Shown here piece after piece: positions 16,408-60,310 of a stretch of DNA of 64,000 bases. The notes beneath the pieces are model-generated. The model searched no databases. It was not told the origin of the DNA and worked only from the letters and a program-made list of their open reading frames with translations. The first letter of the stretch is position 1. Each line of letters starts with the position of its first letter. Source of the stretch: a virus; the IMG/VR virus record IMGVR_UViG_3300021960_000019; one strand, written 5' to 3'. Position numbers and translations under genes: made by a program.

Positions 16408-17763
16408 ATGATGTATACAGAAATGCATTTGTCAGATCAATTACAGGAGAAGTGGAAGCCAGTGATTGAGCACCCAGATCTTCCAGAGATCAAGGACTCT
16501 TACAAAAAAGCGGTAACTGCTATGCTCCTTGAAAACCAAGAGAAAGCGGCACGTGAAGAGCATGCCATGCTGAACGAGGTTAATGTTGTTGGTGCAGGAA
16601 TGTCACCAACAGCGGGAGAAGGTGAAATTGCAGGTATGGACCCAGTTCTTATCTCGCTAGTTCGCCGTGCAATGCCGAATTTAATGGCCTACGATGTACT
16701 TGGAGTACAACCAATGTCAGGACCAACTGGACTTATCTTTGCGATGCGTTCACGTTATGACAACCAATCTGGTACAGAATCATTTTTCAATGAAGCTGAT
16801 ACCGCCCATTCTGCAACAGGTTCACATGCAGACACTGACCCATTTGCTGGTGCAGTCATCGCCTCTGGCGCTCTTGACGAAACTGGTGGAACTTTTGCAT
16901 CAGGTGCTGGTGGTTCAACTGCCAATCTTGAAACATTAGGTTCAGGTGCATCAAACCCAATGGGTACTGGTGGACATTTCAACCAAATGGCATTCTCAAT
17001 TGAGAGAATCACTGTGACCGCAAAGTCACGTGCCCTCAAAGCAGAATACACAATGGAACTTGCACAAGACTTAAAAGCAGTACACGGTCTTGATGCAGAG
17101 TCCGAACTCTCAAACATCTTGTCAACAGAAATCATGACTGAGATTAACCGCGAGGTTATCCGCACAGTTTATGCTTCTGCTGTACTTGGTGCCCAGAATC
17201 AAACAACCACAGGTATTTTTGACTTAGATGCAGATGCCGATGGACGTTGGTCTGTTGAGAAGTTTAAAGGACTTCTTTTCCAAATCGAACGTGAGTCTAA
17301 TGCAATCGCAAAAGCTACTCGCCGTGGTAAAGGTAACATGTTAATCTGTTCATCTGACGTTGCATCTGCTCTTGCAATGGCTGGTGTACTTGATTACAAC
17401 CCTGCACTACAAAACAACATCACTGCTGATGACACTGGACAAACTTTTGCCGGTGTACTTAACGGTAAAATGCGCGTGTACATCGATCCATATTTCGATG
17501 CTGCTGGTGCATATGAAGTTGCATGTGTGGGTTACAAAGGTACTTCACCATATGATGCGGGTCTTTTCTATTGCCCATACGTACCATTACAAATGGTTCG
17601 TGCAGTAGGTGAAAATACCTTCCAACCAAAAATCGGTTTCAAAACACGCTACGGTATTGTTGCGAACCCATTTGCTGAAGGTTCAACTGCTGGTAACGGT
17701 GCTATAACTGCCCGTACAAACCAGTACTACCGTATCTTCCGTATCGACAACTTAATGTCATAA
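16408..17763 (+). CDS. gp23: Major capsid protein gp23
   Basis: GVQPMSGPTGLIFAMR, ELAQDLKAVHGLDAE and FQPKIGFKTRYG. Confidence 0.98.
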   Translation: MMYTEMHLSDQLQEKWKPVIEHPDLPEIKDSYKKAVTAMLLENQEKAAREEHAMLNEVNVVGAGMSPTAGEGEIAGMDPVLISLVRRAMPNLMAYDVLGVQPMSGPTGLIFAMRSRYDNQSGTESFFNEADTAHSATGSHADTDPFAGAVIASGALDETGGTFASGAGGSTANLETLGSGASNPMGTGGHFNQMAFSIERITVTAKSRALKAEYTMELAQDLKAVHGLDAESELSNILSTEIMTEINREVIRTVYASAVLGAQNQTTTGIFDLDADADGRWSVEKFKGLLFQIERESNAIAKATRRGKGNMLICSSDVASALAMAGVLDYNPALQNNITADDTGQTFAGVLNGKMRVYIDPYFDAAGAYEVACVGYKGTSPYDAGLFYCPYVPLQMVRAVGENTFQPKIGFKTRYGIVANPFAEGSTAGNGAITARTNQYYRIFRIDNLMS

Positions 17764-43102: not shown

Positions 43103-44506
43103 ATGGCATATAATCTAAGATTAAATGACGCAAAAGACACTAAACTAGTTCCCGCAACACGCCCTAGGCGAAAAGATATAGTTGGAATACAACAGTATAT
43201 CAACGAAACATATAGAAGTCCAATTATCTTAGATCCTAAAGGTAATTATACTACTATTAAAATTCCTAGAAGTGTTTCTAAGAATATCACTATCCCAAAT
43301 CTCAAACGTGCATTAACAAAAGCTGGTTGTAACATCAGTCAATTAAATATTACATTTGGTGATGGTTCTGGTAAAACCAAAGGTGGCATGGATGCATCTG
43401 AAACCAAGTTTCAAGAAAATGCCACACTAGAGTTTTGCAAACAAATGATTGAAAAAAATAAAAAACCTACATTTAATACAATTAAAAATATCTACAAAAA
43501 AGTGGATGATGATTGGATGGAAAGTTTTGAGGCAACCGCTCAGGCATTAAAAGACTATGTGAAACGAGGTGGATATGAATATAGTAGAGATACAGGAGTC
43601 ATGCCAGTAATTGAAAAACTCGCATCACAATATTGTGGAGTTACTAAAAAAGATGCTTGGAACCCAATGGATATTGTTATTATTCGTAGTTCTAAGAAAT
43701 TTAAAATTATGAAGGAGTTGAATGAAGTGAGAAAATTTAATGATAAAGATGCCGCACTAGATTACTTAAATTCTAAAATGAGATATTATGCCCATGATAA
43801 AGATTTGTTGGGAATCTCTTTAAAGAAAGTAAACCCTAAGAAAAGAATTAAAACTGAATGGAGTGACCCTAAAATAATCAGACAACAAGAATCTCCAAAC
43901 ATCAAAATTATTCAGAGTGGGATAAATTTTGATTGGACACTTCAAAGTAATGGAGAATTCAAAACTGGAGAACTTTCCTTTCAATTGGATATTAATGGAA
44001 ACTTAGTTACGATGCAGAAAAGATCCTTTTCTGGTGGAGTGCGAGAGAAAAACCAAATAGACATGACTGCAAAGGGTGCATCTGCAAAATTGGGTAAAGT
44101 ATCTGGACCTCTTGCTGTAGACCCTTTCTTAAAACTATACTCTATGTCACGGTTTGATATGAAAAATATGCCAAGAATGGGATCATTCACTCAAAATGAA
44201 ATTGATTATTGGGTACACTTATATAAAAAGGTTTACTTGAAGAAAATTGATAGACAGAATATCAATTTTGGACCTGCAAAAAATCCGACTATATTTAAAA
44301 ACACTTTAACAGCCGCAATTGAATTGGAACAAGATATCGCAAGAACTGCATCACAACTAAGTTCGAAATTACAGTCTCTTTATTTCTTAAATTTGTTGGT
44401 ACAAATTGACGAAAAGGGTGGTATTAAAGATTTCTTTGAAGTGATGTATTATGGTGCAAAAAAACAATATGAAAGTGCCGGTGTGTTTTTGAAAATATCC
44501 GATTAA
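43103..44506 (+). CDS. Hypothetical basic protein, possible PD-(D/E)xK restriction-type nuclease
   Basis: TKFQE, WNPMDI and GISLKK spacing; ATG at 43103 follows AAGGA. Confidence 0.55.
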   Translation: MAYNLRLNDAKDTKLVPATRPRRKDIVGIQQYINETYRSPIILDPKGNYTTIKIPRSVSKNITIPNLKRALTKAGCNISQLNITFGDGSGKTKGGMDASETKFQENATLEFCKQMIEKNKKPTFNTIKNIYKKVDDDWMESFEATAQALKDYVKRGGYEYSRDTGVMPVIEKLASQYCGVTKKDAWNPMDIVIIRSSKKFKIMKELNEVRKFNDKDAALDYLNSKMRYYAHDKDLLGISLKKVNPKKRIKTEWSDPKIIRQQESPNIKIIQSGINFDWTLQSNGEFKTGELSFQLDINGNLVTMQKRSFSGGVREKNQIDMTAKGASAKLGKVSGPLAVDPFLKLYSMSRFDMKNMPRMGSFTQNEIDYWVHLYKKVYLKKIDRQNINFGPAKNPTIFKNTLTAAIELEQDIARTASQLSSKLQSLYFLNLLVQIDEKGGIKDFFEVMYYGAKKQYESAGVFLKISD

Positions 44507-44546
44507 AAAAATACATAAATAATAGTTTAACAACAGGAAAAGTAGG

Positions 44547-45800
44547 ATGATGGAATCCTTTAATGAATTTTTGACAGAAGATAAGGGTGGTAAGAACCTG
44601 CATCTCGAACATATTGAAGATGAAATCATCAATTATGGAATTAGTGGTGGTAGGGCTTCAATAAATTTCTTACGTTCGTTGAGAGATATGTTATCTGGTT
44701 CTTCTACCAAACAAGTTAATATGACTGTTAAGTGGGATGGTGCTCCAGCAATCTTTGCTGGAGTTGACCCATCTGATGGAAAATTCTTTGTTGCAAAGAA
44801 AGGAGTATTTAATATAACTCCAAAACTTTACAAAACTAAAGAGGAAATAGATAATGATCTCTCAGGCAACCTTAATTCAAAATTTAAAGTCGCGTTGGAA
44901 GAACTTTCGAAATTGGGTATCACTAATGTTTTACAAGGTGATCTTATGTATACCGATGATGTAGAAACTAAAACTATAGATGGGATTAATTACTACACAT
45001 TTCAACCGAATACAATTGTATATGCAGTACCAGTAGCTTCTGAATTGGGCAAAACCATCAAAAAGTCAAAATTGGGAATTGTTTGGCATACTACATATAC
45101 AGGTAATGAGTTACAGGGTATGACTGCATCCTTTGGTGCTGATATTAGTAAGTTAAGAAAACCATCTACTGTGTGGATGGACGATGCTACATACAAAGAT
45201 GTTTCTGGAAGTGCAAAATTTACTAAAAAAGAAACTTCTGAAATTACTAAAATACTATCATCTACTGGAAAAAGGTTTCAAAAAATTAAAACCTCAGATT
45301 TTAATAAATTTCAAAAGATGCAAATAGATGTAATGAAGGGAACATTATCTGGCGCATCATTTAAAACATATTTAAACTCTTTTATTAGAAAAGGTGAGTC
45401 ATTTGACTCGACGAAGGCAAAAAGATTTGACTATCCTATGTACGTAAAGAAATATTTTGATGAAAAAATTATAGTCAAATTGAAAACTGAAAAGTCTCGA
45501 ACTGCTAAGGCAGAATTGAGAGACCAATTAGTTAAAGATTTAATAAAGTATAATTCTATGATAATTCAACTAATAGAATTTATGTCTGGAATTGTAAACG
45601 CAAAAATGATTATTGTCAAAAAACTTGACAAAGTACAACAATTAACAAAAACTTTCATTCGTACATCGAATGGATATAAAGTAACAAATGCAGAAGGTTA
45701 CGTTGCTATTGATAATAATGGTAAATCTGCAGTAAAATTAGTGGATAGATTAGAATTCAGTTATAATAATTTCACAGCAGCTAAGGCATGGGATAAATAA
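44547..45800 (+). CDS. ATP-dependent ligase-fold protein (RNA-ligase-like) with capsid-targeting-like N-terminus
   Basis: KWDG (motif I), LQGDL (III), EGYVA (IV) and VKL (V); begins MESFNEFLTE; CATAAATA upstream at 44514-44521. Confidence 0.65.
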   Translation: MMESFNEFLTEDKGGKNLHLEHIEDEIINYGISGGRASINFLRSLRDMLSGSSTKQVNMTVKWDGAPAIFAGVDPSDGKFFVAKKGVFNITPKLYKTKEEIDNDLSGNLNSKFKVALEELSKLGITNVLQGDLMYTDDVETKTIDGINYYTFQPNTIVYAVPVASELGKTIKKSKLGIVWHTTYTGNELQGMTASFGADISKLRKPSTVWMDDATYKDVSGSAKFTKKETSEITKILSSTGKRFQKIKTSDFNKFQKMQIDVMKGTLSGASFKTYLNSFIRKGESFDSTKAKRFDYPMYVKKYFDEKIIVKLKTEKSRTAKAELRDQLVKDLIKYNSMIIQLIEFMSGIVNAKMIIVKKLDKVQQLTKTFIRTSNGYKVTNAEGYVAIDNNGKSAVKLVDRLEFSYNNFTAAKAWDK

Positions 45801-46157
45801 ATGTTTACATATAGAGCAACAATATTAAGATGGGTTGACGGTGATACCGTTGATGTGGATATTGATCTAGGTTTTGGGGTATGGTTACGAAAACAACGTG
45901 TAAGGTTGTTTGGAATTAACACTCCAGAAAGTCGTACTAGAGATTTGGAAGAAAAGGAGCGTGGACTTGCTGCAAAAGAATTTGCAAAAAGTTGTGCGCC
46001 AGTTGGTACATCAGTTACTATTCAAACTACTAAGGGTAAAGAGACAGGAAAATACGGTCGTATCCTTGGTACTATAATGGTAAATGAAGATCAATCAGTA
46101 AATCAAATGTTAATTGAAAACGGACATGCAGTAGAGTACTTTGGAGGAAAAAGATGA
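45801..46157 (+). CDS. Thermonuclease (SNase-like)
   Basis: VDGDT, VRLFGINTPE and GKYGRILG. Confidence 0.88.
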   Translation: MFTYRATILRWVDGDTVDVDIDLGFGVWLRKQRVRLFGINTPESRTRDLEEKERGLAAKEFAKSCAPVGTSVTIQTTKGKETGKYGRILGTIMVNEDQSVNQMLIENGHAVEYFGGKR

Positions 46158-46465
46158 CTAATCATATAAATGCATGGCAAAAGATGATTGAAAATCTAAA
46201 TGACAGATTTGACCCATCTTCTGACATAGAAGAAGATTTTGTACAGCCTTTAGTTGAAGATCATGAGGCAGATATGGCACTCACTGAGTTAAAATCTATT
46301 TCTGATAAGGCATTACAACTGGCAGAAGAAATTGAAAAGAAGAAAAATGCAATGGGTGGTGAATTAGAACTTGCTGCATGGTGTCAATCCAAAATCACCA
46401 AATGCAATGATTATATGAACAGTGTATATGATTACATGATGTATTCTGGTGATGAGAATAGTTAA
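46154..46465 (+). CDS. Hypothetical protein (candidate internal head protein)
   Basis: EDHEADMA..AWCQSKIT..DY module; coupled ORF. Confidence 0.6.
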   Translation: MTNHINAWQKMIENLNDRFDPSSDIEEDFVQPLVEDHEADMALTELKSISDKALQLAEEIEKKKNAMGGELELAAWCQSKITKCNDYMNSVYDYMMYSGDENS

Positions 46466-46758
46466 TGAAATCTTTTGGTTATTTCATATCTGAGGGTGTT
46501 AAACTCAAACTCATTCGTGGCAAAGACATGGATGTTTTGAAGATGTGGAATAAGGGTGATAAAAAGTGGGTTGAACTTAGGGGTAAGAGTGGATTTGAAA
46601 CGAAGTATGATCCAAAAGACCCACTGCATAAGGCAATCACCGCACTTGGAAAGTCTGCAAGTATATCAGACTTTATGAATGGTGATGAAGTAAGTATTAA
46701 TCCAAAACATGCAGATGGTAAAAAGGCACTAAAGATGATTAAAGGACTGATGAGGTGA
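46465..46758 (+). CDS. Candidate internal head protein
   Basis: Begins MKSFGYFISE. Confidence 0.65.
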   Translation: MKSFGYFISEGVKLKLIRGKDMDVLKMWNKGDKKWVELRGKSGFETKYDPKDPLHKAITALGKSASISDFMNGDEVSINPKHADGKKALKMIKGLMR

Positions 46759-47360
46759 AAAGTTTTAATACATTTTTAGTTGAGGCCTCAGGTAAAGGAC
46801 TAACAATCTTTGACATAGATGAAACTATGTTTATAACTAAGGCAGAAGTAAAGGTTGTTAAAGATGGAAAAGTTGTTAAAAAATTAAACAATCAGGAATT
46901 TAATACATATAAGAAAAAATCTGGAGAAGTGTTTGATTTTGGGGAGTTTAAAAGTGCAGAAGTGTTTAATAAAACTTCAACACCGATTGCCAGAATGATT
47001 AATAAAGTAAAGGTAATACTGAAAAATGCAACTAAGGCTGGTTCAAAGGTTATTATTGTAACGGCAAGACCAGATTTTGATGACAAAAAATTATTTCTTG
47101 ATACATTTAAAAATCAAGGGATTGATATAGATAAAATTTTTGTGGAACGCGCTGGAAATTTAGGTTCTGGTCCTGCTGCGGATAATAAGAAAGTTATTTT
47201 TAAAAAGTACTTAGATACAAAAATATATAAAAGAATTAGACTGTTTGATGATGCAAATTCAAACTTAAAAATGTTTCTAAGTTTACAAAAAGAATATCCA
47301 GAAGTATCTTTTGAGGCATTTCTGGCAAAACATAATGGATCAGTTAAGAGGGTAAGATGA
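46755..47360 (+). CDS. HAD-family phosphatase (Pnkp 3'-phosphatase-like) with capsid-targeting-like N-terminus
   Basis: IFDIDET, IVTAR, K and LFDD motifs; begins MKSFNTFLVE. Confidence 0.75.
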   Translation: MKSFNTFLVEASGKGLTIFDIDETMFITKAEVKVVKDGKVVKKLNNQEFNTYKKKSGEVFDFGEFKSAEVFNKTSTPIARMINKVKVILKNATKAGSKVIIVTARPDFDDKKLFLDTFKNQGIDIDKIFVERAGNLGSGPAADNKKVIFKKYLDTKIYKRIRLFDDANSNLKMFLSLQKEYPEVSFEAFLAKHNGSVKRVR

Positions 47361-47704
47361 AAAGTTTTAACAGAGTAGAAGAAATTGACCAGATTTGCGA
47401 AGAATGCAATCTATATGAAGATTTAGAATTGATTGAATCTGAATATCAAGGTAAAAAAGTTACATTAAATAAACCTAGTAGATCCCAAGATGGAAAGAAA
47501 AAGTTTTATGTGTATGTAAAGAATGAAAAGGGTAATGTTGTTAAAGTTGGATTTGGTGACCCTAATATGGAAATCAAAAGAGATGATCCTGCAAGGAGAA
47601 AATCTTTCAGAGCAAGACATAACTGCGACAATCCTGGCCCTAAATGGAAAGCTAGATATTGGAGTTGTTATCAATGGCGTGGTGGAGCAAAAGTAAAGGA
47701 CTAA
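47357..47704 (+). CDS. Conserved small basic viral protein
   Basis: KKFYVYV..KVGFGD..RRKSFRARHNC..ARYWSC; begins MKSFNRVEE. Confidence 0.7.
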   Translation: MKSFNRVEEIDQICEECNLYEDLELIESEYQGKKVTLNKPSRSQDGKKKFYVYVKNEKGNVVKVGFGDPNMEIKRDDPARRKSFRARHNCDNPGPKWKARYWSCYQWRGGAKVKD

Positions 47705-47712
47705 ATAGTAGT

Positions 47713-48141
47713 ATGACAAACGAATACAAATATGAAGATGTAGATTTTGGATTTACTGCAGTAGATGAAGATGAATTACGTAGTCTCTCTGGTGGTGATG
47801 AATCTGTAGAAAAAGTAACACAAGTCGCAGAGGCGACTAGTGCAGAACTACGTGGACTTGACGGCAAACTCTCAGAATTAATTGAAATGCAAAGAGATGT
47901 TATGTCTGAATTAATTGCATCTAAAAGTTTGTATGAAGAAAAGAGTAGTGGACTTGATATTTCTAAGGAAGTATTAGAAGATAAGTTATTAAAGTTGGAA
48001 AGACTTATTATGCCATTATTGCAAAACCTATTAAAGAATAAAGATAAAGAATATATTTTCTGGCCGAATAGAGAACCTATCATCAAAGCGCAAATGGAAA
48101 AAGTCTTAGAAATTACGAGGGATAACGATGGCGAAGGATAA
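47713..48141 (+). CDS. Hypothetical coiled-coil protein
   Basis: DFGFTAVDEDEL and PLLQNLLKNKDKEYIFWPNR; likely start 47713, after ACTAAATA. Confidence 0.65.
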   Translation: MTNEYKYEDVDFGFTAVDEDELRSLSGGDESVEKVTQVAEATSAELRGLDGKLSELIEMQRDVMSELIASKSLYEEKSSGLDISKEVLEDKLLKLERLIMPLLQNLLKNKDKEYIFWPNREPIIKAQMEKVLEITRDNDGEG

Positions 48142-50338
48142 AATTGTTTTTACGTTTGGTAGATTTAATCCTCCAACTACTGGACACGAAAAGTTAATTG
48201 AAAAGGTTGCTGCAGTCGCTAAAAAAGAGGCCGCAGATTTTATGGTCTTTCCAAGTCATTCTCAAAATCCAAAAAAAGATCCTCTTGATTTTAAGACCAA
48301 AGTCAGATTTATGAAAAAGATGTTTCCAAAATATTCAAGAAATATCATTTCAAATAATAAAGCAAAAACTGCAATTAATGTTGCAACAATTTTATATGAA
48401 ATGGGATATAAAGAATGTGCAATGGTTGTCGGTGGAGATAGAGTTACAGAGTTTAAAACTTTATTAAACAAGTATAATGGTGTTGAAGGCAGACACGGAC
48501 TTTATGATTTTAAGGGTGGTATTAAGATATATTCCGCAGGGGAAAGAGACCCAGATGCAGAAGGTGTTACTGGTATGTCTGCATCTAAGATGAGAGCTGC
48601 TGCAGCTGCAGATGATTATGATAGTTTTAAAAACGGTTTACCATCAAAGTTTGAAAGGACTGATGGTAAAAAATTATACACTGCGATCAGAAAGGCAATG
48701 AAAGTTGAAAATACCGAATTTGGATTGTGGTTGGGTGATGCAGAATTATTCTCAGAATTTATGAATTCTGGTTTCATTGATACTATAGGAGAGTCATCTA
48801 ATGATGAGGTCTTTGATATGATTTATGAAAAGGTATCTCAAAAACAAGTTGGAGATTTAGAGAAGTTTGCAGATAAATTACTTGCAAAATTTAACATTGA
48901 TGTTACATTTACGAAACACTTTGCAGATAGAATGAATGATTCTAGAAACTCTCCAGATATTAAAATTGCAGAGTTGCAAAAATTATTTAAAAAGATACAA
49001 AAAAATAAAGGTAAGAATATCTTATCAAATCCTGATATAGAGGCTGTACTAAAAGATATCTCAACTGACTTAAATTTGCCTGTAGTTATCAACTACAATA
49101 ATGGTGAATTTGAATTGGTTACAAAAACTATTATGAGAAAGAAAAATTTTAGTACTTCTAGTAAAGTTATGAAATATGAAGAAAACGAAATGAAAGATTT
49201 TTCTAGTTTTATATCAGAAAGAAAAACTGCCCAAGACCCAGATGTAAAAGACAAAGAAGGCACTCAACCTAAAAAGTATTATGCAAAAGATGCTGATGGT
49301 GATGATATGTCTAAGGGTACGAAAGAAAAGCGTGCAGCACATTTCAAGAAACAGGCAGACAAACCAGATGGTGATGATAAGTCATATAAACCAGCGCCAG
49401 GTGATGCAAATGCAAAAACTAAACCATCTAAACATACGAAAAAATATAAAGATATGTTTGGTGAGCAGATTGACGGACTAAGAAAAAAGGCAGATAAGTC
49501 TGGTATGCCATACAGTATACTTAAAAAGGTATATGATAGAGGTATGGCTGCATGGAAATCTGGACATAGGCCAGGCACTACTCCACAACAATGGGCATTT
49601 GCAAGAGTCAATTCTTTTGTTACGAAATCATCTGGTACATGGGGTGGTGCAGATAAAGATCTTGCTGCAAAAGTAAAAAAAGAAAGTGTTGAAGAAGATA
49701 GAGATTATAAAAAAGAACGTGAAAACTATCATGGCACTCCAGAACAGATGGAAAAAAATCGTGCCAGAAAACGTGCAAGATATGCAATGGAAAAGGCCGG
49801 TAAAGCAAAACGTGGTGATGGTAAAGATGTACATCACAAAGACAATAATCCATTAAACAATGATCCAAAAAATCTATCATTAGTAACTCAACACTATAAT
49901 AGAAAAGAACCTAGAATGAGAGAAGAACTTTCGCTAGATAAAATAGATGAAATTACTAGTAAAAGACGAATGCAACTGATAAACAAAATCAAAAAATCTG
50001 GTGTTGTCAAAAAAGGTTCTATGTCAAAAGATACCAAAGATAAAAAAGAAAATAATGGCCCATGCTGGCCTGGCTATAAACAAGTCGGTATGAAAATGAA
50101 AAATGGAAAAGAAGTACCAAATTGTGTACCAGAGGAAACAGTGCATGAATCATTGTCTGGTGCAGAAAATCCACCAAAATTACCAAAGGCCGGTGGTGGA
50201 GAGTTTGGTACTAAAACTTTAAGAGACACTTATTTGAAAGATACTCCTTTTATGGAATTAGTTATGACGCCGAATGAATTAAAAAATTATCGCAATATAA
50301 TTGATATTATAAATATAGAGAAAACCAAGGGAAATTGA
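48128..50338 (+). CDS. Multidomain protein: HIGH-type nucleotidyltransferase, several small modules and an HNH module
   Basis: FGRFNPPTTGH, VGGDR and MSASKMR; RGMAAWKSGHRPG..QQWAFARVNSF module; DVHHKDNNPLNN..NL..N HNH; CWPGY..PNCV. Confidence 0.8.
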   Translation: MAKDKIVFTFGRFNPPTTGHEKLIEKVAAVAKKEAADFMVFPSHSQNPKKDPLDFKTKVRFMKKMFPKYSRNIISNNKAKTAINVATILYEMGYKECAMVVGGDRVTEFKTLLNKYNGVEGRHGLYDFKGGIKIYSAGERDPDAEGVTGMSASKMRAAAAADDYDSFKNGLPSKFERTDGKKLYTAIRKAMKVENTEFGLWLGDAELFSEFMNSGFIDTIGESSNDEVFDMIYEKVSQKQVGDLEKFADKLLAKFNIDVTFTKHFADRMNDSRNSPDIKIAELQKLFKKIQKNKGKNILSNPDIEAVLKDISTDLNLPVVINYNNGEFELVTKTIMRKKNFSTSSKVMKYEENEMKDFSSFISERKTAQDPDVKDKEGTQPKKYYAKDADGDDMSKGTKEKRAAHFKKQADKPDGDDKSYKPAPGDANAKTKPSKHTKKYKDMFGEQIDGLRKKADKSGMPYSILKKVYDRGMAAWKSGHRPGTTPQQWAFARVNSFVTKSSGTWGGADKDLAAKVKKESVEEDRDYKKERENYHGTPEQMEKNRARKRARYAMEKAGKAKRGDGKDVHHKDNNPLNNDPKNLSLVTQHYNRKEPRMREELSLDKIDEITSKRRMQLINKIKKSGVVKKGSMSKDTKDKKENNGPCWPGYKQVGMKMKNGKEVPNCVPEETVHESLSGAENPPKLPKAGGGEFGTKTLRDTYLKDTPFMELVMTPNELKNYRNIIDIINIEKTKGN
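50308..50315 (+). promoter_or_regulatory. Late promoter TATAAATA
   Basis: Exact consensus about 25 nt upstream of the 50340 ATG. Confidence 0.75.
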
Positions 50339-50339
50339 A

Positions 50340-52310
50340 ATGACCAATAATATTTTCACACAAAAGAAAGAAGTTCTTGACCTAATCCAAAATATTATGG
50401 AGAATTCAGATACGGCCGAGATTCTAGAAGAAAAGTATAAACTGTATCACAAAGATTTTTCTAGTGCTATGAAACATGCATACGATACTGTTAAGAAAAT
50501 GGGATACGAAGTAGACCCAGAGAGTATTAATGATAAAGTTGCATTTGGACCTAGAAAACCTTCAAGTGGTAAAACAAATAGTTATAGATTAGATTTACTC
50601 AAAAAAGGTAAACCCCAGAAAAAGGGTGTGCAAATTCAAGTTTACAACATGGATAATAAAAGTTATGAATTGAATATGTACCTTGAAGAAGTTGAACTTG
50701 CAGAGGCTACTGGTGGTTTAAAGATGTTAGGTGCCGCCGATGAATTAGAAAAGTATGCCAAAAAATATGGTGGTATGGACAAAAAAGATTTTCTTAAAGT
50801 TGCAAAACTGATGAGAAAAGGTATGTCTGATAAAGTTGTCGGAATGACTAATAACTTAGATACTGAACCTAGAGAAAAAATTGTTGATGTTGTTGCAAAT
50901 CACATTGGTGTTAAATCTACAGAAAAAATGTTTGGTGTAAAATTCTTACATAGAAAAGAATCTGTTGAAAATAAAGAAGTTTCTGAAAACAAAAGTCTCA
51001 TCAAAGACTATGAAAAGTATATGTCGCAAAGTGGTAAGAAATCCCACAATGCATTTGATTACTTAATGTCTATGCCAAAGTATAAGCGTATGTCAAAAGA
51101 CCAGATGACAAAAATCATCGGTGATGCGAAACGCAAAGGCATCTTCAAAGAAGAAGGTGAACTTGATGAAAACAAAAAGGCTGCATTGCAAAAGAAACTC
51201 GCAAAAACCGCACAGTCATCCAAATCAGGAAAAGATAAAGTAACTCTGAAAAAGGCTCCTTGGGATAAAAAGGAAGAACTTTCACCAAAACAAAAGAAAA
51301 TTGACGCAAATAATAATGGTAAAGTTGACGGGGAGGATCTTGCCAAGTTAAGATCTAAAAAAGAAGAAGTACTTTCTCAAATTAAAAACCTTATTTTAGA
51401 CGAAGGTAGAAAACAAGTTCTTGCACATGGTGGTAAAGGACAATATAAAGTAGTTAGTACTGATGGTGCTGTTGATGTTGTTTTCAAAGGTAAAGTAGTA
51501 GGTAAAGGTGACTATGATAGAGGTGCAGATTCTTTCTTTATCAGTATGAAGGGGCAAAAAGGACAAAAATCTTTTGATGACGCTCAAGATATCGCCGATT
51601 ATTTTGCAAAAAACAAAATTAAAGAAGAAGTTGAATTGCAAGAGTATTCTGCACTACCAACTGTCGAAACTTTAAAGAAAATGCATGATGAAGGTAAAAC
51701 TAAAAAACAAATCATGGCTGCATACTCAGGATGTGATTCAGTAAAATTAGAAAAACTCTATGCACAACATTGTACCGAAGAATTAGAAGAAAAGTTTTCT
51801 CCAAAAGAAATTAAGATGGCAATTGGTGTTGCATCAGATAAGAGATATGCTGGTGGTAACATGACAGGTGCAGTAAAGGCAATCGATAAAATTAAAAAAG
51901 GATTATCTAATCATCCACAAGTCTCTGCAGTATTAAAAAGACAAAACGAAGATAATGTACAAGAGTCAGAATGTGATTGTTGCAATGAAGATCCTTGTAA
52001 CTGCCCTGCAGACTGTAAATGTCGTAAATCCGAAGAACTTTCTCCAAAACAAAAGAAAATCGATAAAAATAAAAATGGTAAAATTGATGGATCGGACTTG
52101 GCAAATTTGAGAAAGAAGAATGAAGATTTTGATGTTGAATCATTAATAGAATCATCTGATAAAAAAGATGCAAAAGAAATGGCAGATTTGGTGAAAGAAT
52201 TAGAACCAAAAATCAAAATGACTGAACTTAAAAAACAAGTTTACGATATGGCCATGGAAAAATATAACAATAAAACAAGAGCGAAGAAAATCGCATCTAT
52301 GATTAAATAA
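50340..52310 (+). CDS. Lys/Glu-rich modular protein (candidate internal polyprotein) with two EF-hand-like loops
   Basis: Basic modules separated by E-rich linkers; EELSPKQKKID-xNxNGKxDGxDLA occurs twice. Confidence 0.7.
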   Translation: MTNNIFTQKKEVLDLIQNIMENSDTAEILEEKYKLYHKDFSSAMKHAYDTVKKMGYEVDPESINDKVAFGPRKPSSGKTNSYRLDLLKKGKPQKKGVQIQVYNMDNKSYELNMYLEEVELAEATGGLKMLGAADELEKYAKKYGGMDKKDFLKVAKLMRKGMSDKVVGMTNNLDTEPREKIVDVVANHIGVKSTEKMFGVKFLHRKESVENKEVSENKSLIKDYEKYMSQSGKKSHNAFDYLMSMPKYKRMSKDQMTKIIGDAKRKGIFKEEGELDENKKAALQKKLAKTAQSSKSGKDKVTLKKAPWDKKEELSPKQKKIDANNNGKVDGEDLAKLRSKKEEVLSQIKNLILDEGRKQVLAHGGKGQYKVVSTDGAVDVVFKGKVVGKGDYDRGADSFFISMKGQKGQKSFDDAQDIADYFAKNKIKEEVELQEYSALPTVETLKKMHDEGKTKKQIMAAYSGCDSVKLEKLYAQHCTEELEEKFSPKEIKMAIGVASDKRYAGGNMTGAVKAIDKIKKGLSNHPQVSAVLKRQNEDNVQESECDCCNEDPCNCPADCKCRKSEELSPKQKKIDKNKNGKIDGSDLANLRKKNEDFDVESLIESSDKKDAKEMADLVKELEPKIKMTELKKQVYDMAMEKYNNKTRAKKIASMIK

Positions 52311-53082: not shown

Positions 53083-55335
53083 ATGGCAGATACTAGATTA
53101 TCCAGTTCGATATCATCACTCAGACAGAAACTATTAGATCAAATTCCGTCGGCAAATCCTGAACAATTAAAAAGAATTGCAAGGTCTGCAAGAAACCTTG
53201 GGCACACTCAAGATACTGATATTGAAGATGCAATCAATACAAGAGCAAATACTCTTATTGTAACTGCAGATGCAACAGAATCTGAAGCTATTGCTGCCGC
53301 GATCAATCAAGTTGACGATTCAATAAATCCAAATATTACTGCATCTGGTACAACCGCAACAGCTGCTGGTACAAATATTGTCACTTCTGACTCTGCGCCT
53401 GGTAATCCCGAAGATGGTGATTTATGGTTTAAAACAGATGAGATGAATTTATATATTTATTATGATGATGGAACATCTTCTCAGTGGGTACAATCAAACG
53501 CACCAACAGTTAGTGGTGGTTCTGGTGATATATCAGACTTGACAGACAGTACTGGACTATTAGGTTCTGGTGGTGCTACTGTCTATGCAGATATGGCGGC
53601 ACTAATAGCCGCTACTGGAATGTCTTCTGGCGATCTTGCTTTGGTTACTGCAAATAATAATATGTATGTATATAATGGATCTGGTTGGTATAAGATTGCT
53701 ACAGTACAAAACGATTCACCTAGTGCAATCACTGGAGTGAATGGAACTTATTCGTTGGCAAAGGACGGAACACCTACGGTTATCACAGCAGTTTCTACAG
53801 ACCCCGAAGGATTCACTCTCATATGGAGTTATGCAGTCACTTCTGGTTCTTTAGGAACAACTGCAACTGTTTCACAAAATGAAAATGTATTTACAATTAC
53901 ACCTAGTACTGATAGTGCTAATGCTGGAACATTTGGGTTGACATTTTCGGTTACTGATGGAGTCAACGGTGCAGTTAATGCAATTAGTACATTTACTTTA
54001 ACATTTTCTATAGATTGGTCATCTGGGTCGTTACAGCATAGTCATCGTGCCTGGGGATGGGATGCTACAAGTCAGGGCAGTGATATAGCATTATCCGAAG
54101 ATGGAGATAAAATGATTGTGGGCAATCCATCATCTGGCAACAACAATGAAGGTACTTGGTCTATATTCACAAGGTCTGGTACTAATTGGGGGAGTCCAAC
54201 TCATATCGCACACACTGATAATTATGAAAACGGTAGGTTAGGAACATCAGTTGCTATGGACGCAACTGGTTCGAGAGTAGCGATTTCTGCTTTGTATGGT
54301 AGTACTTCAGGAAATACTTCAAATAAGGCGGGAAATGTAATAATATATACACTAAGTGGTACAACTGCAACAAGAGAAGCTGTTATAGTTGCTGATACAA
54401 ATTATTTATATGCATTAAATTATCCCACTTATGGTGGATGTATAAGTATGGATAAATTAGGAGAAAGAATAATTGTTGGTCATGCAGGAGCCACTGCAGG
54501 AAATCGAACTAATCGTGGACAAGCACACATATATAAGAGGACTGGAACAACGTGGGCAAAAGAACAAACTTTGGAAAGCGATTACAATTATGATTACCAA
54601 GGAAATGGAGTAGCAATTTCTGGTGATGGTAATACTGTTTTTGTGACAAGGGGCGCTGGTGGCGGAAATTCCAATGAGAGGGCCCAAACGGCCGCACCAT
54701 CTGTTAAAATATACACAAGAAGTGGAACGAGTTGGAGCCTTCAAACAGAAATAGATTCTCCGGCGGGTATCTATCAGAACAATCGATTTGGTGGTATATC
54801 GACGGGCGGGATTGGGTCAATATCATGCACTAATGATGGTAATATTCTAGTGATTGGTGATGGTGGGGCATCAAGCAACGGCTCGAACAATAATAAGCAT
54901 GGAAAGGCATGGGTGTTTACAAGAACTGGCACTTCATGGGATTCTGGAGTAGCATTAACTCCATCTAGCTCGTTGGGTACGAGGGATGGATTTGGAACAA
55001 GAGTTACAATAGATGACAATGGAACTGTTATTGTTGTAGGTAAACCACAAGCGGAAAATAGCCAATATTTAGATGGTGGTGAGTTTCATGTTTTTCAGAA
55101 AAACGAATCGGGAAGTTTTGTGGAAGTAGATAAAATATCAAATCCAGACGATCTCAGTTCTGTATCAGGCACTGAAGGACCACAGGACGGCGCGAAATTT
55201 GGGCAAGGCCTTGCTATATCTGGCAATGCGGAATATCTAGGTGTCGGGGCCCCAATCCATTTCTATTACGTGAGTGGCAACCCCACTGGTTATCATGGCG
55301 ATCACTACGGCAAAACTTATGTTTATATACCTTAA
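53083..55335 (+). CDS. Fibre/receptor-binding-type protein with FG-GAP-like propeller
   Basis: MADT helical N-domain, GDLWF module, Ig-like domain, and repeated G..VA(I/L)SxDG and RxGTxW blades. Confidence 0.7.
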   Translation: MADTRLSSSISSLRQKLLDQIPSANPEQLKRIARSARNLGHTQDTDIEDAINTRANTLIVTADATESEAIAAAINQVDDSINPNITASGTTATAAGTNIVTSDSAPGNPEDGDLWFKTDEMNLYIYYDDGTSSQWVQSNAPTVSGGSGDISDLTDSTGLLGSGGATVYADMAALIAATGMSSGDLALVTANNNMYVYNGSGWYKIATVQNDSPSAITGVNGTYSLAKDGTPTVITAVSTDPEGFTLIWSYAVTSGSLGTTATVSQNENVFTITPSTDSANAGTFGLTFSVTDGVNGAVNAISTFTLTFSIDWSSGSLQHSHRAWGWDATSQGSDIALSEDGDKMIVGNPSSGNNNEGTWSIFTRSGTNWGSPTHIAHTDNYENGRLGTSVAMDATGSRVAISALYGSTSGNTSNKAGNVIIYTLSGTTATREAVIVADTNYLYALNYPTYGGCISMDKLGERIIVGHAGATAGNRTNRGQAHIYKRTGTTWAKEQTLESDYNYDYQGNGVAISGDGNTVFVTRGAGGGNSNERAQTAAPSVKIYTRSGTSWSLQTEIDSPAGIYQNNRFGGISTGGIGSISCTNDGNILVIGDGGASSNGSNNNKHGKAWVFTRTGTSWDSGVALTPSSSLGTRDGFGTRVTIDDNGTVIVVGKPQAENSQYLDGGEFHVFQKNESGSFVEVDKISNPDDLSSVSGTEGPQDGAKFGQGLAISGNAEYLGVGAPIHFYYVSGNPTGYHGDHYGKTYVYIP

Positions 55336-55920
55336 TTTTAAATAGTACGAAAAGGATAATACTATGGCAATCAATTTTCCAAATTCACCAACAAATGGCC
55401 AAGCATTTGATGTTGGGTCTATGACATTTGAATATAATTCCACTAAAGCAAGATGGGAAATTGTCGCTGGCACAACTAATACAGATATTTCCGATTTAAC
55501 AGACACTGGTGGACTATTAGGTTCTGGTGGTGCAACTGTTTATGCAGACCTGCCAGCATTAATTGCTGTAACTGGAATGTCTTCTGGTGATCTTGCTTTG
55601 GTTACTGCAAATAATAATATGTATGCATATAATGGATCTGGTTGGTGGAAAATTGCAACACTTGAAAACAATTCTCCAACTGCAATCACTGGAGTAAATG
55701 GATCTTATTCACTAGAATCTGATGGAACACCTACAGTGATTACAGCAGTATCCACAGACCCCGAAGGGTTCCCCCTAACATGGAGTTATGCAGTCACATC
55801 TGGTTCTCTTGGTACAACAGCAACTGTTTCACAAAATGAAAATGTATTTACTATAACGCCAGGCACAAACGATCCATCAGATGCTGGTACATTTACTCTA
55901 ACATTTAGTGTTACTGATGG
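53527..55920 (+). repeat. About 435-bp imperfect direct repeat (53527-53960 and 55484-55920) shared by two adjacent fibre genes
   Basis: Long identical runs, e.g. GGACTATTAGGTTCTGGTGGTGC, GATCTTGCTTTGGTTACTGCAAATAATAATATGTATG and GCAACTGTTTCACAAAATGAAAATGTATTTAC. Confidence 0.9.
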
Positions 55921-56833
55921 TAGTTCTGGTGCGACATCCGTGGCCTCAGCATTTAGTCTTAACTTTCTACCGATTAATGGTGAGGTCACAAACGTATCTG
56001 GACTAAGTGCAGCTGCATATGGTGATTATTTAATTAAAAAACTAACCTCTGGGAGTGGTAGTTTCACAATTCCAACTACAGCCAAGTACGACTTATTAAT
56101 GGTCGGCGGTGGTGGCGGTGGTGGTGATGGTAATGCTGCCGGTGGCGGCGGTGGCGCTGGTGGAATGGTCGAAGGGTTTGAGGTAACTTTGCCGGCTGGT
56201 AATTATACCATTTCAGTTGGTGCCGGTGGATCTGGTGCAACATCCAATGATGGCAGTGGGAGTACTGGTGGAAATACAGTATTAACAAATACTACTACTG
56301 GAGACTCTATGACTGCCTTGGGTGGTGGTGCTGGTAGAGGTTGGAGTGGTAATTTGGCAACTTCTAACGGTGGTTCTGGTGGTGGTGATACAGGGCCCGA
56401 CAATTCTTCTGGTACATCTATCGCACAAGCAAAAGGAGCATTTACCGCATTTGGTGGTGAATCATTCCATGAATATGGTAATAACGGCGGCAACAAATGG
56501 GGCAACGATTATGGAGGCGGCGGTGGCGGCGCAGGCAGCGCGGCTGGCACTCAGGGCGCATCCGGCGATCCAAGAGCTAATTCGATAGAGACAGGTAGTG
56601 CTCAATACTATGCAGAAGGTGCTACTGGCGCCACTTTTCAAGGTACTTCTCATGCAACCACTAGTTATGGACTTGGTGGTAATGGTGGGAAATACGGTAA
56701 TTCTTCCACTGAGATAGCACCGACCAATGGAACAAATGGAACTGGATCTGGTGGTGGAGGCAAGACTGATTCGTATCTCGACGCGAATGTCGGCCAAGGT
56801 GGCAGTGGTATTTTTGTATTACGACATGTATAA
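55364..56833 (+). CDS. Fibre-type protein with glycine-rich C-terminal domain
   Basis: MAINFPNSP N-terminus, shared Ig-like block, VGGGGGGG..GGGGAGG repeats and terminal GGSGIFVLR. Confidence 0.7.
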   Translation: MAINFPNSPTNGQAFDVGSMTFEYNSTKARWEIVAGTTNTDISDLTDTGGLLGSGGATVYADLPALIAVTGMSSGDLALVTANNNMYAYNGSGWWKIATLENNSPTAITGVNGSYSLESDGTPTVITAVSTDPEGFPLTWSYAVTSGSLGTTATVSQNENVFTITPGTNDPSDAGTFTLTFSVTDGSSGATSVASAFSLNFLPINGEVTNVSGLSAAAYGDYLIKKLTSGSGSFTIPTTAKYDLLMVGGGGGGGDGNAAGGGGGAGGMVEGFEVTLPAGNYTISVGAGGSGATSNDGSGSTGGNTVLTNTTTGDSMTALGGGAGRGWSGNLATSNGGSGGGDTGPDNSSGTSIAQAKGAFTAFGGESFHEYGNNGGNKWGNDYGGGGGGAGSAAGTQGASGDPRANSIETGSAQYYAEGATGATFQGTSHATTSYGLGGNGGKYGNSSTEIAPTNGTNGTGSGGGGKTDSYLDANVGQGGSGIFVLRHV

Positions 56834-56860
56834 TCAATAGAACTAAAGGATAAAATATAG

Positions 56861-57484
56861 ATGGCCGATACAAACTTGAACACTTCTATTGCTTCAGTCA
56901 AATCTAAAATTCTTAATGATTTGCCAACTGCAACTATAGAAGAAGTTACTCAACTTGCAAGAGGTGCTAGAGCTGCTGGACTAGACGAAGATGCTACAGT
57001 AGAAACTGCATTAAATTCCAGAGTCAATACTTTGGTATCGGGGGCATCCGCTGAAGATTTGAGGAAACTTTCTGTCGCATTAAGACAACTCAGAAATCCT
57101 GGCTTAACAGTTGCATCTTCGATTAGTAATACAGATGGCTTGACAGAAGGCACAACTAATGTATACTATACTAATGCAAGAGTGCAATCTCATCTAGGAA
57201 GTTTTTCTGGTAATATCTTACCAGATGCAAATGATACATATGATATTGGTTCTGCAGAATATAAAATTAGAGATTTATATGTAAGTGATAATTCTATACA
57301 TATTGGAGATAAGACTTTAAGTAGAGACAATGTGGACAGAAGTATGGAGGTTTTTGATGAATTGCCACCATCTTCACCCACAGATATTGGTAACAAGGGT
57401 GATGTTCGTATAGATTCTGATTATATGTACGTATGTAAAGACCTAAATAGTTGGGTAAGAATTCCTATAGATAAAACGTGGTAA
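56861..57484 (+). CDS. Short fibre/adaptor protein
   Basis: MADT helical N-domain; ILPDANDTYDIGS..IRDLY fibre motif; GNKGDVRIDSDYMYVC..W. Confidence 0.65.
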   Translation: MADTNLNTSIASVKSKILNDLPTATIEEVTQLARGARAAGLDEDATVETALNSRVNTLVSGASAEDLRKLSVALRQLRNPGLTVASSISNTDGLTEGTTNVYYTNARVQSHLGSFSGNILPDANDTYDIGSAEYKIRDLYVSDNSIHIGDKTLSRDNVDRSMEVFDELPPSSPTDIGNKGDVRIDSDYMYVCKDLNSWVRIPIDKTW

Positions 57485-57489
57485 AATAA

Positions 57490-60231
57490 ATGGCAGATAG
57501 TAATCTAGACACATCATTAAGTGCAGTATCTTCTGCAATACTTTCACAAATTCCTACTGCGACTATAGACGAGTTGGTTAATTTATCTAGAGCGGCACTG
57601 CAAATTGGTGAAAGTGAAAATGCAACTATAGAAACTGCAATAAATGCAAGAGTCAATACTCTAGTATCTGGTGCAACTGCGACAGAATTAAAAAAACTTG
57701 GTGATGTTATCAATAGAATGAAAACAACACCAGTTACGACAACTGCAGATTCTGGTAGTTCAGGACCGACTGCGGCAGTAACAACTTCAGATACTGCACC
57801 TTCTGCACCAAGTGATGGTGATTTGTGGTGGAACTCTAGTAATGGTGGATTATATCTTTATTACAATGATGGAAGTAGTACACAATGGGTAAGTGTTAGA
57901 GGAGCAACTGGGCCTGCTGGCGCTGATGGTGCCGATGGCGCTGATGGTGTTGGTGGGGGTTCATCTGTAACAACTTCAGATACAGCACCAACAAGTCCTA
58001 ATTCTGGCGATCAATGGTTTGACACCACTTCTGGTACTCTGTATGTCTACTATAACGATGGAACTAGTTCACAATGGATTGGTGTTTCTGGACCTTCTGG
58101 AGCAGATGGTGCTGATGGCGTTGATGGTGCAGATGCATCAAATCCTAGTCCTACTATAACATCAATTTCTCCAACGTCATACGATGGAACAACTGGTACA
58201 AGCATTACAATAATCGGTACAAATTTTGATATAGGTACTATAGTGTCGTTCATAGATTCTGGCGGAAATGAATATAATGCATCAACAACCTCTGTCATAA
58301 CTCAAGGAGAACTTACTGCTGTGACACCTCAGGCATTTACGGCCGCAGATGGTCCGTTGGATTTGAAGGTAACAACAGGTGGCGGACAAAATACGACTAC
58401 AACAGATGCAATCCAAACTGGAGGGTCTCCGATATGGACTACTGCCGCTGGACAACTTGGTTCATCATTATATAAAGATACAATTGGAGTCTCATTGCCG
58501 ATTGTTGCAACTGATCCAGAAGGACAATTTGTATCATATACAGTAAACAGTGGAGCATTAGTGCCAGGCCTCAGTCTTGGTGGTGGAACAGGTTTAATCA
58601 CTGGAGATGTTACGTCTGCAAGTATTACGGCAACAACAAATTATTCCTTTACTGTAAATGCCAGTGATACATCAGGAAACGCAACTCCCAGAACATTTTT
58701 TATTAATGTTTTAAATGAGTTTGGAACTTACTTCACTAGAAATTCTACATACAAGTGGACATATTCACAAAATGTTACTAGGGCATCAGAGTTATATACT
58801 GACCTAGCAGCCAATACCGATGGAGCACCTGAGTTTAGAACCAATTTATTATCAGATAATACTTCCGCTACAGGTGATGCACTAAAATATGCTTACGGTG
58901 CATATATTAAATTTAATATGTTGGTTGGCCCATCTAGTACACCTAAAACGGTTATAGGATTTGTAAATAGAAACTCATCAAATAATAATTGGTCATTATC
59001 GCCATTTGATTACGGTGACGCACCAAATATTGATAATAATTATAGAAATTTTATGTTTATCAATAGTAATTCAAGTACTAGTACAACTTCTGATTGGTCA
59101 AATACTAGTAATGGTAACGGAAGATTAATACACCTTGTCTCTGTAGATGATAATGATTGTAGTTTTATGAGGGCAGATGGAGCAGCAATTATACACGGTG
59201 GCCAAGGGGCCACTAATCAAGCAGAACCAACATATGTATATCAGCCAAATACAGACTACTCATCAAATGCGTCTAATATCACCGCCCATGCTGGAGCAAC
59301 AAGCGTTCCAACTCAAGCTGCAAATTGGCCTGGTGGAGGTGCAGCAATTGGAATGCATCCTTGGTTACAACAAGTAAAAGCATCCACTTCAGCGCCGTGG
59401 GCTGGTATTTCATCTTATGATGTGACAAATAGACAAAGTAGTTATAGTGGCTATACAGGTGGCAACACCGGCACTCAAAGGTTTGCAGTAGTATCATTTA
59501 TGGGAATAGGTGGAGAAGTAGTATTTGAATATTTTGGTGGCAATGTTGCTTATTATGTTTCAGTAATATTGCCAAATGGATATGTACATAGGTTTGCAAG
59601 ACAAACTATAACTTCTCCTTCTAATATTCCATTAGTATTTACAAATAACCCAAACGAACGAAATAATACTATAACTTCTGTTAATGATGGATTTAGTGAA
59701 GCCATGATGCAGAAAAGTGACTCATCAACTGGTGCAATTACCTTCAATGTAAATTGGACTAATGGCACATTGGAAAATGTTACAAATATAACATTATCTA
59801 CAGTGAATAAAATCCAGACTGAAGAAGATATTTATGGTGATCCTATACATCTTGTTCTTGGGAGTCCTTGGTTTCACAAATACTACAACAATTCGCCGCA
59901 TGGATCCACTTTTCTTCATTCTTGGGCAGATGGAATTCCACTCTCCAATCATGAAAATTGGAAAAGTACTAACAATTATGGTAGATGGATGGGCGAAAAT
60001 ATTTATACATACTATAAAAGTAGTAGTCGAGTGTTGCATTATAGCAACGCGCAAGGCGGCCAACAGACAGGATTAGATTTATTTTCAATGATAGGTCCAC
60101 AAAATTATGTGTACTTGGGTGATTGGGGTCATGATAATGAAGGAATGTTTGGTCAAAGTGGTATTGGCCAAGACTCGCAATTTACTTTTTCACGAACTAA
60201 TATTAGACTTATTCCCTCAGATTGGTATTAA
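57490..60231 (+). CDS. Fibre-type protein with GDxW modules, short collagen-like repeats and IPT/Ig-like domains
   Basis: MADS N-domain, GADGADGADG, PTITSISP..ITIIGTNF and ATDPEG. Confidence 0.7.
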   Translation: MADSNLDTSLSAVSSAILSQIPTATIDELVNLSRAALQIGESENATIETAINARVNTLVSGATATELKKLGDVINRMKTTPVTTTADSGSSGPTAAVTTSDTAPSAPSDGDLWWNSSNGGLYLYYNDGSSTQWVSVRGATGPAGADGADGADGVGGGSSVTTSDTAPTSPNSGDQWFDTTSGTLYVYYNDGTSSQWIGVSGPSGADGADGVDGADASNPSPTITSISPTSYDGTTGTSITIIGTNFDIGTIVSFIDSGGNEYNASTTSVITQGELTAVTPQAFTAADGPLDLKVTTGGGQNTTTTDAIQTGGSPIWTTAAGQLGSSLYKDTIGVSLPIVATDPEGQFVSYTVNSGALVPGLSLGGGTGLITGDVTSASITATTNYSFTVNASDTSGNATPRTFFINVLNEFGTYFTRNSTYKWTYSQNVTRASELYTDLAANTDGAPEFRTNLLSDNTSATGDALKYAYGAYIKFNMLVGPSSTPKTVIGFVNRNSSNNNWSLSPFDYGDAPNIDNNYRNFMFINSNSSTSTTSDWSNTSNGNGRLIHLVSVDDNDCSFMRADGAAIIHGGQGATNQAEPTYVYQPNTDYSSNASNITAHAGATSVPTQAANWPGGGAAIGMHPWLQQVKASTSAPWAGISSYDVTNRQSSYSGYTGGNTGTQRFAVVSFMGIGGEVVFEYFGGNVAYYVSVILPNGYVHRFARQTITSPSNIPLVFTNNPNERNNTITSVNDGFSEAMMQKSDSSTGAITFNVNWTNGTLENVTNITLSTVNKIQTEEDIYGDPIHLVLGSPWFHKYYNNSPHGSTFLHSWADGIPLSNHENWKSTNNYGRWMGENIYTYYKSSSRVLHYSNAQGGQQTGLDLFSMIGPQNYVYLGDWGHDNEGMFGQSGIGQDSQFTFSRTNIRLIPSDWY

Positions 60232-60310
60232 GGCAAAAAACAATAAGATGACGTATTCATACACAATTTTTTTATTAAATATATAATAAGAACTAAAGGA
60301 ATTTCTATAA

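Follow-up and report, generated by a model that had tools for sequence, protein, structure and literature searches.

The DNA analysed here is a stretch of 64,000 nucleotides from the virus record IMGVR_UViG_3300021960_000019 (the window, below), which is part of a T4-like marine myovirus with all of its long open reading frames (ORFs) on the + strand. At the DNA level the isolates most similar to it are Methylophilales phage Melnitz (~71% identity in places) and Pelagibacter phage HTVC008M, with numerous Kyanoviridae cyanomyoviruses next. Our subject is a locus at 44547-50338 in which otherwise unrelated proteins carry a common leader of about ten residues, similar to the capsid-targeting sequence (CTS) of the T4 internal head proteins. 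The locus comes after the gp41 helicase and 2OG oxygenase genes within a tight run of genes (43103-52310), and contains the following (a slash marks a predicted cut, and pI is the isoelectric point).

44547-45800, + strand: DUF6267 protein of 417 residues (Pfam PF19782, E=5e-103), with leader (M)MESFNEFLTE at 44550-44579 and predicted cut E/DKGG
45801-46157, + strand: SNase-type nuclease of 118 residues without a leader (PF00565, E=3e-13; phrog_452 endonuclease, E=6e-37)
46154-46465, + strand: acidic protein of 103 residues, pI 4.3, without a leader
46465-46758, + strand: basic protein of 97 residues with leader MKSFGYFISE/G, mature-part pI 9.9
46755-47360, + strand: predicted HAD-superfamily phosphatase of 201 residues with a GTG start and leader (M)KSFNTFLVE/ASGKG (phrog_415 'polynucleotide kinase', E=2e-7)
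47357-47704, + strand: basic protein of 115 residues (phrog_7595) with the degenerate leader MKSFNRVEE
47713-48141, + strand: acidic protein of 142 residues, pI 4.45, without a leader (weak sub-threshold CdiI_ImmP match, E=0.003)
48128-50338, + strand: fusion protein of 736 residues comprising, from Pfam and PHROG matches, a cytidylyltransferase/NMNAT-like domain (residues 1-200), a middle domain, an internal leader, DUF5824, an HNH-like stretch and a tail

A shared leader in the locus

The leaders of the locus share the consensus M-[KE]-x-F-x-x-[FY]-[LI]-x-E. Those at 44550, 46465 and 46755 all have Phe at positions 4 and 7, and the fourth, MKDFSSFISE/RK, lies at 49190-49219 inside the fusion ORF, starting at residue 355. 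All four end in a site of the L/I-x-E type recognized by the T4 prohead protease gp21 (FLTE, FISE, FLVE and the internal FISE). The original prediction had described six such T4-style tags, at 44550, 46465, 46755 (the GTG start), 47357, internally at 49190, and as MLSFGDYLE on the product of a head gene at 14310. All six peptides are located as it claimed, and its description applies well to four of them (44550, 46465, 46755 and 49190) and poorly to the other two. Using a position-specific scoring matrix (PSSM) built solely from leaders of other phages, the N-termini at 44550, 46755 and 46465 score 14.7, 13.5 and 10.8 respectively, with the next best of the 62 gene starts at -0.4, and the internal site at 49190 scores 22.3, the top of 20,078 internal positions. 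The peptides at 47357 and 14310 each score about -7, have only their first four residues in common with the leader, and carry the F4/F7 targeting residues only in part; the grading of MKSFNRVEE (47357) as the weaker form was thus well judged.

The strict motif is expected 0 times in shuffled sequence. A start-codon-anchored form of it, scanned across the 64-kb window, recovers only 44550, 46465, 46755 and 49190, and the same pattern applied as a control to 49 kb of T4 recovers only ipII and ipIII, which are experimentally defined CTS genes. Synonymous codons within the motif differ from gene to gene, indicating that the likeness resides at the protein level and that selection is on the peptide.

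The residues that are conserved are those with defined functions in T4. In the T4 record IPII and IPIII begin MKTYQEFIAE/A, and IPI begins MKTFKEF and is cut after ITE/A. In the CTS, residues 4 and 7 are the main determinants of targeting and residues 8 and 10 those of processing, with gp21 cutting after L/I-x-E (PMC9026906). Per-position entropy was calculated for leaders ending in Glu10 from 78 distinct DUF6267 and 35 distinct HAD homologues, with E10 itself being the selection criterion, and is low at F4 and L/I8 in both sets. At position 7 the HAD leaders have F/Y and the DUF6267 leaders F/Y/L/I, and positions 2, 3, 5, 6 and 9 vary freely. Among 120 close homologues of the 46755 HAD protein F4, F/Y7, L/I8 and E10 are all kept.

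The mature parts of the tagged proteins are basic (pI 9.3-11.8), in contrast to the small untagged neighbours, which are acidic (pI 4.3-4.5). The size and charge of the 97-residue protein at 46465 are like those of a T4 internal protein, and the orthologue of this protein in a related locus (L020) begins MLGFTQYLSE. Members of phrog_7595 in other phages, to which the 47357 product belongs, begin MKTFHELAINE or MKTFKEVAIDE. In HTVC008M (L002) the annotated start of gp131 (7099-7500) is probably too far upstream, and the 47357 homologue within it begins at an internal M-V-KSFKEVEEID.

The leader as a detachable module

In the 44547 protein the Pfam DUF6267 model begins at residue 17, and an AlphaFold2 model (pLDDT 91.3) has residues 1-12 below 50, such that the leader is predicted to be disordered. 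A survey of 150 DUF6267 representatives at no more than 50% identity shows three arrangements. In 23 of them the mature end (M-x-KN-x-HLEH) is also the start of the protein. A short extension is present in 94, and [LIVMF]xE occurs in 89 of these. A further 27 are fused behind other domains, and [LIVMF]xE is present within 14 residues of the domain in all but one (26/27, where ~22% would be expected by chance).

The cytidylyltransferase family presents the same three classes: tagged starts, mature starts and fusion joints. Many orthologues begin MKKFSEIIE/ARGD or MKSFNAFLTE/AKDKG and fused forms have FKDITE/AKDKG at the joint; the window cytidylyltransferase, which starts MAKDKIVFTFGRFNPP, begins exactly at the cut predicted in its orthologues (TE/AKDKG). 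Cyanophages such as Syn9, S-RIM2, S-SM1 and S-SZBM1 have the reverse pattern, with the cytidylyltransferase tagged and DUF6267 untagged. Domains of the locus are also shuffled, and the 47357-47704 domain is fused to the C-terminus of Melnitz gp17 (L001 5610-7562), a cytidylyltransferase protein.

The portability of the leader was surveyed in 80 related IMG/VR loci totalling 695 kb and 873 ORFs. The scan of relatives envisaged in the original prediction finds it to be widespread, with 64 ORFs tagged, whereas the null averages 1.4 and never exceeds 5. These tagged ORFs represent at least 17 families beyond those of the window, including a RimK-type ATP-grasp protein, an NT5C nucleotidase and an AAA-like protein. 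Tagged proteins in isolates include a SAM hydrolase, a kinase, an acetyltransferase and a small protein encoded between terS and terL. In all, the leader was seen in over 20 families with no relation to one another, and among orthologues it is present in some and absent from others, with the boundary at the predicted cut. The claim that one tag is shared by otherwise unrelated proteins is thereby borne out, as the mature parts belong to different families and the leader behaves as a detachable module.

Virion proteomes, head module and flanking genes

Evidence from virions is available as published proteomes of related cyanophages. Mass spectrometry (MS) of S-CREM2 particles detected 52 of 221 proteins (PMC10665884). 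A relaxed leader pattern applied to the assembled S-CREM2 genome matches six gene starts, and five of the products (gp6, gp13, gp14, gp136 and gp154, the last with leader MKNFSSFLTE) are among those detected by MS; the sixth match, a 55-residue ORF with L at position 4, is not. The hypergeometric probability of this overlap is P=0.003 for the six relaxed matches, and P~0.0006 for the strict matches (5/5). S-CREM2 (L006) gp12 and S-CRM01 (L004) g128 have in common an N-terminal stretch of ~17-22 residues (RW..WS.G...) followed by a leader-like F-x-S-F-[IM]-x-E/AA, and S-CREM2 gp12 is also detected in virions. This stretch may be a longer propeptide of the IPI type.

Other published proteomes list homologues of the cytidylyltransferase in virions of S-SM1 (25 peptides), S-SZBM1 and S-SCSM1, as well as S-CREM2. 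Their authors suggest that the virion cytidylyltransferase is carried into the host, and the available text gives no loading mechanism or leader. In S-SM1, whose genes were matched to the proteome by the gene-cluster numbers in GenBank notes, the syntenic locus encodes four or five virion proteins (genes 188, 190, 191, 192 and 195). With so many virion proteins encoded at the syntenic position, the label 'payload locus' given in the original prediction is apt. Untagged DUF6267 is undetected in the S-SZBM1 proteome, and the untagged form (cluster 71) has no entry in the available portion of the virion table for S-SM1, S-PM2 and Syn9. The S-SM1, S-SZBM1, S-SCSM1, S-CREM2 and S-CRM01 virion proteins of the cytidylyltransferase/NMNAT-like and kinase types include homologues of the window 48128 protein in the same neighbourhood. 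They differ in that the window enzyme domain has no N-terminal leader; what is added here is the leader itself, which predicts which S-CREM2 proteins are detected.

The window also contains a T4-type head module, with two small ORFs between the portal and prohead protease genes. It includes the putative partners of the leader:

12539-14095, + strand: portal
14310-14576, + strand: very basic protein of 88 residues in the gp68 position, starting MLSFGDYLENDLDE/A, mature-part pI 11.8
14573-15214, + strand: gp21-type prohead protease (PF03420 Peptidase_S77, E=3e-35), the presumed reader and cutter of the leader
15281-16339, + strand: gp22-type scaffolding core protein (PF25623 T4_CASP, E=4e-68), the presumed docking partner
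16408-17763, + strand: Gp23 capsid protein

The scaffold has 19 [LI]xE sites. The 14310 protein has an L-x-E site at residues 12-14, and is probably an internal head protein whose propeptide is of the longer, IPI kind. The N-terminus of the window prohead protease is itself leader-like (MKLITEIVE/D), as are those of S-CREM2 (MKLIREEIE) and S-SZBM1 (MKLITETIE); these fit with a proposal made for T4, in which the propeptide of gp21 serves to target gp21 itself (PMC9026906).

Late-type promoters had been predicted at 44514, 47700 and 50308, of which the first and last are retained and another was found further upstream:

43067: AATAAATA, absent from the original list, upstream of the 43103-44506 gene
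44514-44521, + strand: late-promoter-like CATAAATA, 33 nucleotides upstream of 44547, the first tagged gene
50308-50315, + strand: exact late-promoter consensus TATAAATA, 32 nucleotides upstream of the untagged gene 50340

The spacing of CATAAATA at 44514 is like that of the exact TATAAATA sites of the structural genes in the window. The site at 47700 was rejected, being merely ACTAAATA and 13 nucleotides from a start. Scans for sigma-70 promoters and terminators gave results at chance level.

Upstream of the locus is one further gene of the run:

43103-44506, + strand: untagged phrog_1462 protein of 467 residues, the conserved upstream neighbour of DUF6267 in many cyanomyoviruses

The sole functional lead for this protein comes from a language model, by which it weakly resembles restriction endonuclease families (score 0.84). 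Within the locus, two strongly acidic untagged small proteins (46154-46465 and 47713-48141) are interleaved with the basic tagged ones, and may be inhibitors or partners of the adjoining enzymes. The start codon of the first overlaps the stop of the upstream SNase-type nuclease gene, and Pfam and PHROG searches with this protein gave no family match. Behind the exact late promoter, 50340-52310 encodes a protein of 656 residues with two copies of an EF-hand/dockerin-like calcium-binding stretch (ELSPKQKKID-N-NGK-DG-DLA). Relatives in this family begin MTRY-x-x-TM-x-E/A, which may be a leader variant having Y4, M8 and E10. Further to the right (53083-62785) are paralogous tail-fibre-like genes with repeated N-termini, MADTRLSSSISSL, MADTNLNTSIASV and MADSNLDTSLSAV at 53083, 56861 and 57490, and MAINFPNSPTNGQ and MAINFPDSPTNGQ at 55364 and 60311, an arrangement that suggests duplicated pairs of fibre genes.

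Probable capsid loading of an enzymatic cargo

Taken with the proteomes, the leader makes it probable that the genes at 44547-50338, together with that of the basic 14310 protein, encode a cargo with a T4-type capsid-targeting leader that is loaded on the scaffold, cut after Glu and kept with the DNA. During head assembly the leader, chiefly through F4 and the aromatic residue at position 7, would dock the protein on the gp22-type scaffolding core, and the Peptidase_S77 prohead protease would then cut after Glu (L/I-x-E/). The mature basic proteins would stay in the capsid with the DNA, and would probably exit with it at infection; by analogy with the T4 internal proteins and Alt, ejection with the DNA into the host is likely. 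The cargo would include the RNA-ligase-like nucleotidyltransferase DUF6267, the HAD protein of the polynucleotide kinase-phosphatase type and the small basic protein. The internal leader of the 736-residue fusion would be a polyprotein cut site, making both halves of the cytidylyltransferase-DUF5824-HNH fusion cargo. It may instead mark an internal translation start at 49190; no clear ribosome site is seen upstream of it. Docking, cleavage and injection, and the roles in end repair or counter-defence considered below, are steps that we infer.

The system is like the T4 CTS (IPII, IPIII, Alt and the 19-residue propeptide of IPI) in having a leader of about ten residues at the N-terminus, with an aromatic residue at position 4, Phe at 7, Ile/Leu at 8 and Glu at 10. 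It is present on otherwise unrelated proteins, in phages with a Peptidase_S77 protease, a gp22-type scaffold and small basic cargo. It differs in that the cargo here consists mostly of larger enzymes (the RNA-ligase-like DUF6267, the HAD phosphatase and the cytidylyltransferase fusion), and that the leader is also found at internal fusion joints; it is known here from sequence, whereas the T4 CTS is known from genetics. Giant phages (SPN3US and phiKZ-like phages) likewise load many unrelated proteins in the head and trim them after a short motif ending in Glu, but with another member of the protease family, another motif and long propeptides, as described in the available parts of the sources. 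The CTS and its distribution among close T4 relatives are already known, and it has been proposed that the CTS lets T4-like phages load varied proteins (PMC9026906). No link of the CTS to cyanophages, pelagiphages or DUF6267 was found in the literature searched. New here are the match of the tag to published virion proteomes, its switching on and off, and its behaviour at fusion joints.

Several observations weigh against capsid loading. The residue following Glu varies (D, G, A or R), whereas the T4 sites examined are all E/A. The 736-residue fusion begins MAKDK, such that its enzyme domain is untagged at the N-terminus, and an internal leader may or may not suffice for targeting. The tagged genes are preceded by a near-consensus late promoter only, the one exact site in the locus serving an untagged gene. 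The virion evidence is indirect, in that it comes from cyanophages rather than from this phage, Melnitz or HTVC008M. Among these relatives, S-SM1 188 and 191 are in virions with no recognizable tag, so that the tag is not the sole route into the particle, and S-SZBM1_191 and _192, which have good leaders, are missing from the shallow, 30-protein S-SZBM1 proteome. Lastly, the cyanophage proteome authors themselves warn that abundant late proteins may co-purify with particles.

These last two points would also suit an alternative in which the decapeptide serves as a helix for docking to a different shared partner (such as a chaperone, host enzyme or stability regulator) and virion detection reflects co-purification of late proteins. 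We regard this as unlikely, since the motif agrees with the T4 CTS at precisely those four positions whose functions have been mapped and closes with a gp21 site, and all five strictly tagged S-CREM2 proteins are detected, unlike the majority of non-structural proteins. Orthologues of the same enzyme that have no tag are also undetected, in so far as the available tables extend, and [LIVMF]xE is kept at fusion joints. Less probable again is that the tagged proteins are components of prohead-core assembly or DNA condensation which are retained or degraded but never delivered, in which case there would be no 'payload'. The T4 core proteins gp67, gp68 and gp22 are mostly degraded in this way (PMC9026906), and the tagged proteins are basic, like DNA-binding internal proteins. 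However, the cargo is composed mainly of enzymes with no evident role in a capsid (ligase-like, phosphatase and cytidylyltransferase, and in relatives kinase, SAM hydrolase and acetyltransferase), and T4 Alt and the internal proteins, loaded by the same route, are ejected (PMC9026906). A mobile 5' cassette (promoter, ribosome site and first codons) or paralogy with no selected peptide signal might be expected of adjacent, tightly packed genes in T4-like phages, which shuffle genes at such boundaries, but was rejected as highly improbable given the differing synonymous codons, the unrelated mature domains, the lack of obvious likeness on inspection upstream of the starts, conservation of specific residues rather than bases, and the presence of the motif inside fusion proteins.

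In DUF6267, K62 (in KWDG), E383-G384-x-V386 and K397 are invariant and correspond to ligase motifs I, IV and V; among 70 sequences at 38-66% identity K62, D64, G65, E383, G384, V386 and K397 are invariant or nearly so. The top seven fold matches to the model (VIA-align) are all RNA ligases, with 176-201 residues aligned and Z-scores of 6.9-8.8, which lie in the middling range of the tool; among them are Naegleria RNA ligase (8.8), the trypanosome editing ligase (8.0), T4 Rnl2 (7.6), and Trl1 and T4 Rnl1 (both 7.5). Foldseek with the same model returned nothing significant (E of 0.09 or worse), and a PDB sequence search with DUF6267 returned no match. Because the Z-scores are modest and the Foldseek result is non-significant, we refer to DUF6267 as ligase-like rather than as a proven ligase. 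The adjoining 46755 protein has the DxDxT motif in the form FDIDET and matches Acid_phosphat_B with E=2e-5 (24.8 bits, under the 27-bit cut-off); PDB sequence searches with it gave no match. By sequence it resembles the phosphatase part of polynucleotide kinase. DUF6267 and the cytidylyltransferase are covered by a single profile, phrog_455, an argument that the two are functionally linked.

These features recall the T4 RNA repair pair Rnl1 and Pnkp, with DUF6267 having ligase motifs I, IV and V and best folds among RNA ligases that include T4 Rnl1 and Rnl2, and with the HAD protein beside it resembling the phosphatase part of polynucleotide kinase. They differ in the modest Z-scores (7.5-8.8), in that no kinase domain was found, and in that the T4 enzymes are not packaged. 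By this analogy a role for the cargo in repairing the ends of RNA or DNA, or in nucleotide-based counter-defence, can be put forward only tentatively, as one we would sooner doubt than expect. Somewhat better placed, if still doubtful, is the broader notion that abundant marine T4-like phages as a group (Kyanoviridae and their pelagiphage and methylophage relatives) have kept the capsid address code of T4, with an injected repair or counter-defence kit.

Cyanophage studies have repeatedly found a virion 'cytidylyltransferase', kinases and other enzymes whose route into the particle, if any, was unexplained, and a leader that predicts the detected proteins offers a concrete and testable loading mechanism. 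The work also points to a likely fold and chemistry, RNA-ligase-like, for DUF6267, a widespread phage family with thousands of homologues in more than 2,600 clusters at 50% identity. If the address code is shared as outlined, the prohead protease would double as a polyprotein-processing enzyme through leaders at fusion joints, and a pre-made kit of the RNA-ligase-like DUF6267, the polynucleotide kinase-type phosphatase and the NMNAT-like cytidylyltransferase would be injected with the DNA, which suggests delivery of enzymes acting on nucleic-acid ends or nucleotides ahead of any phage gene expression. The packaged proteome of marine T4-like phages would then be readable from sequence, and metagenomes could be used to predict the packaged sets of abundant ocean phages.

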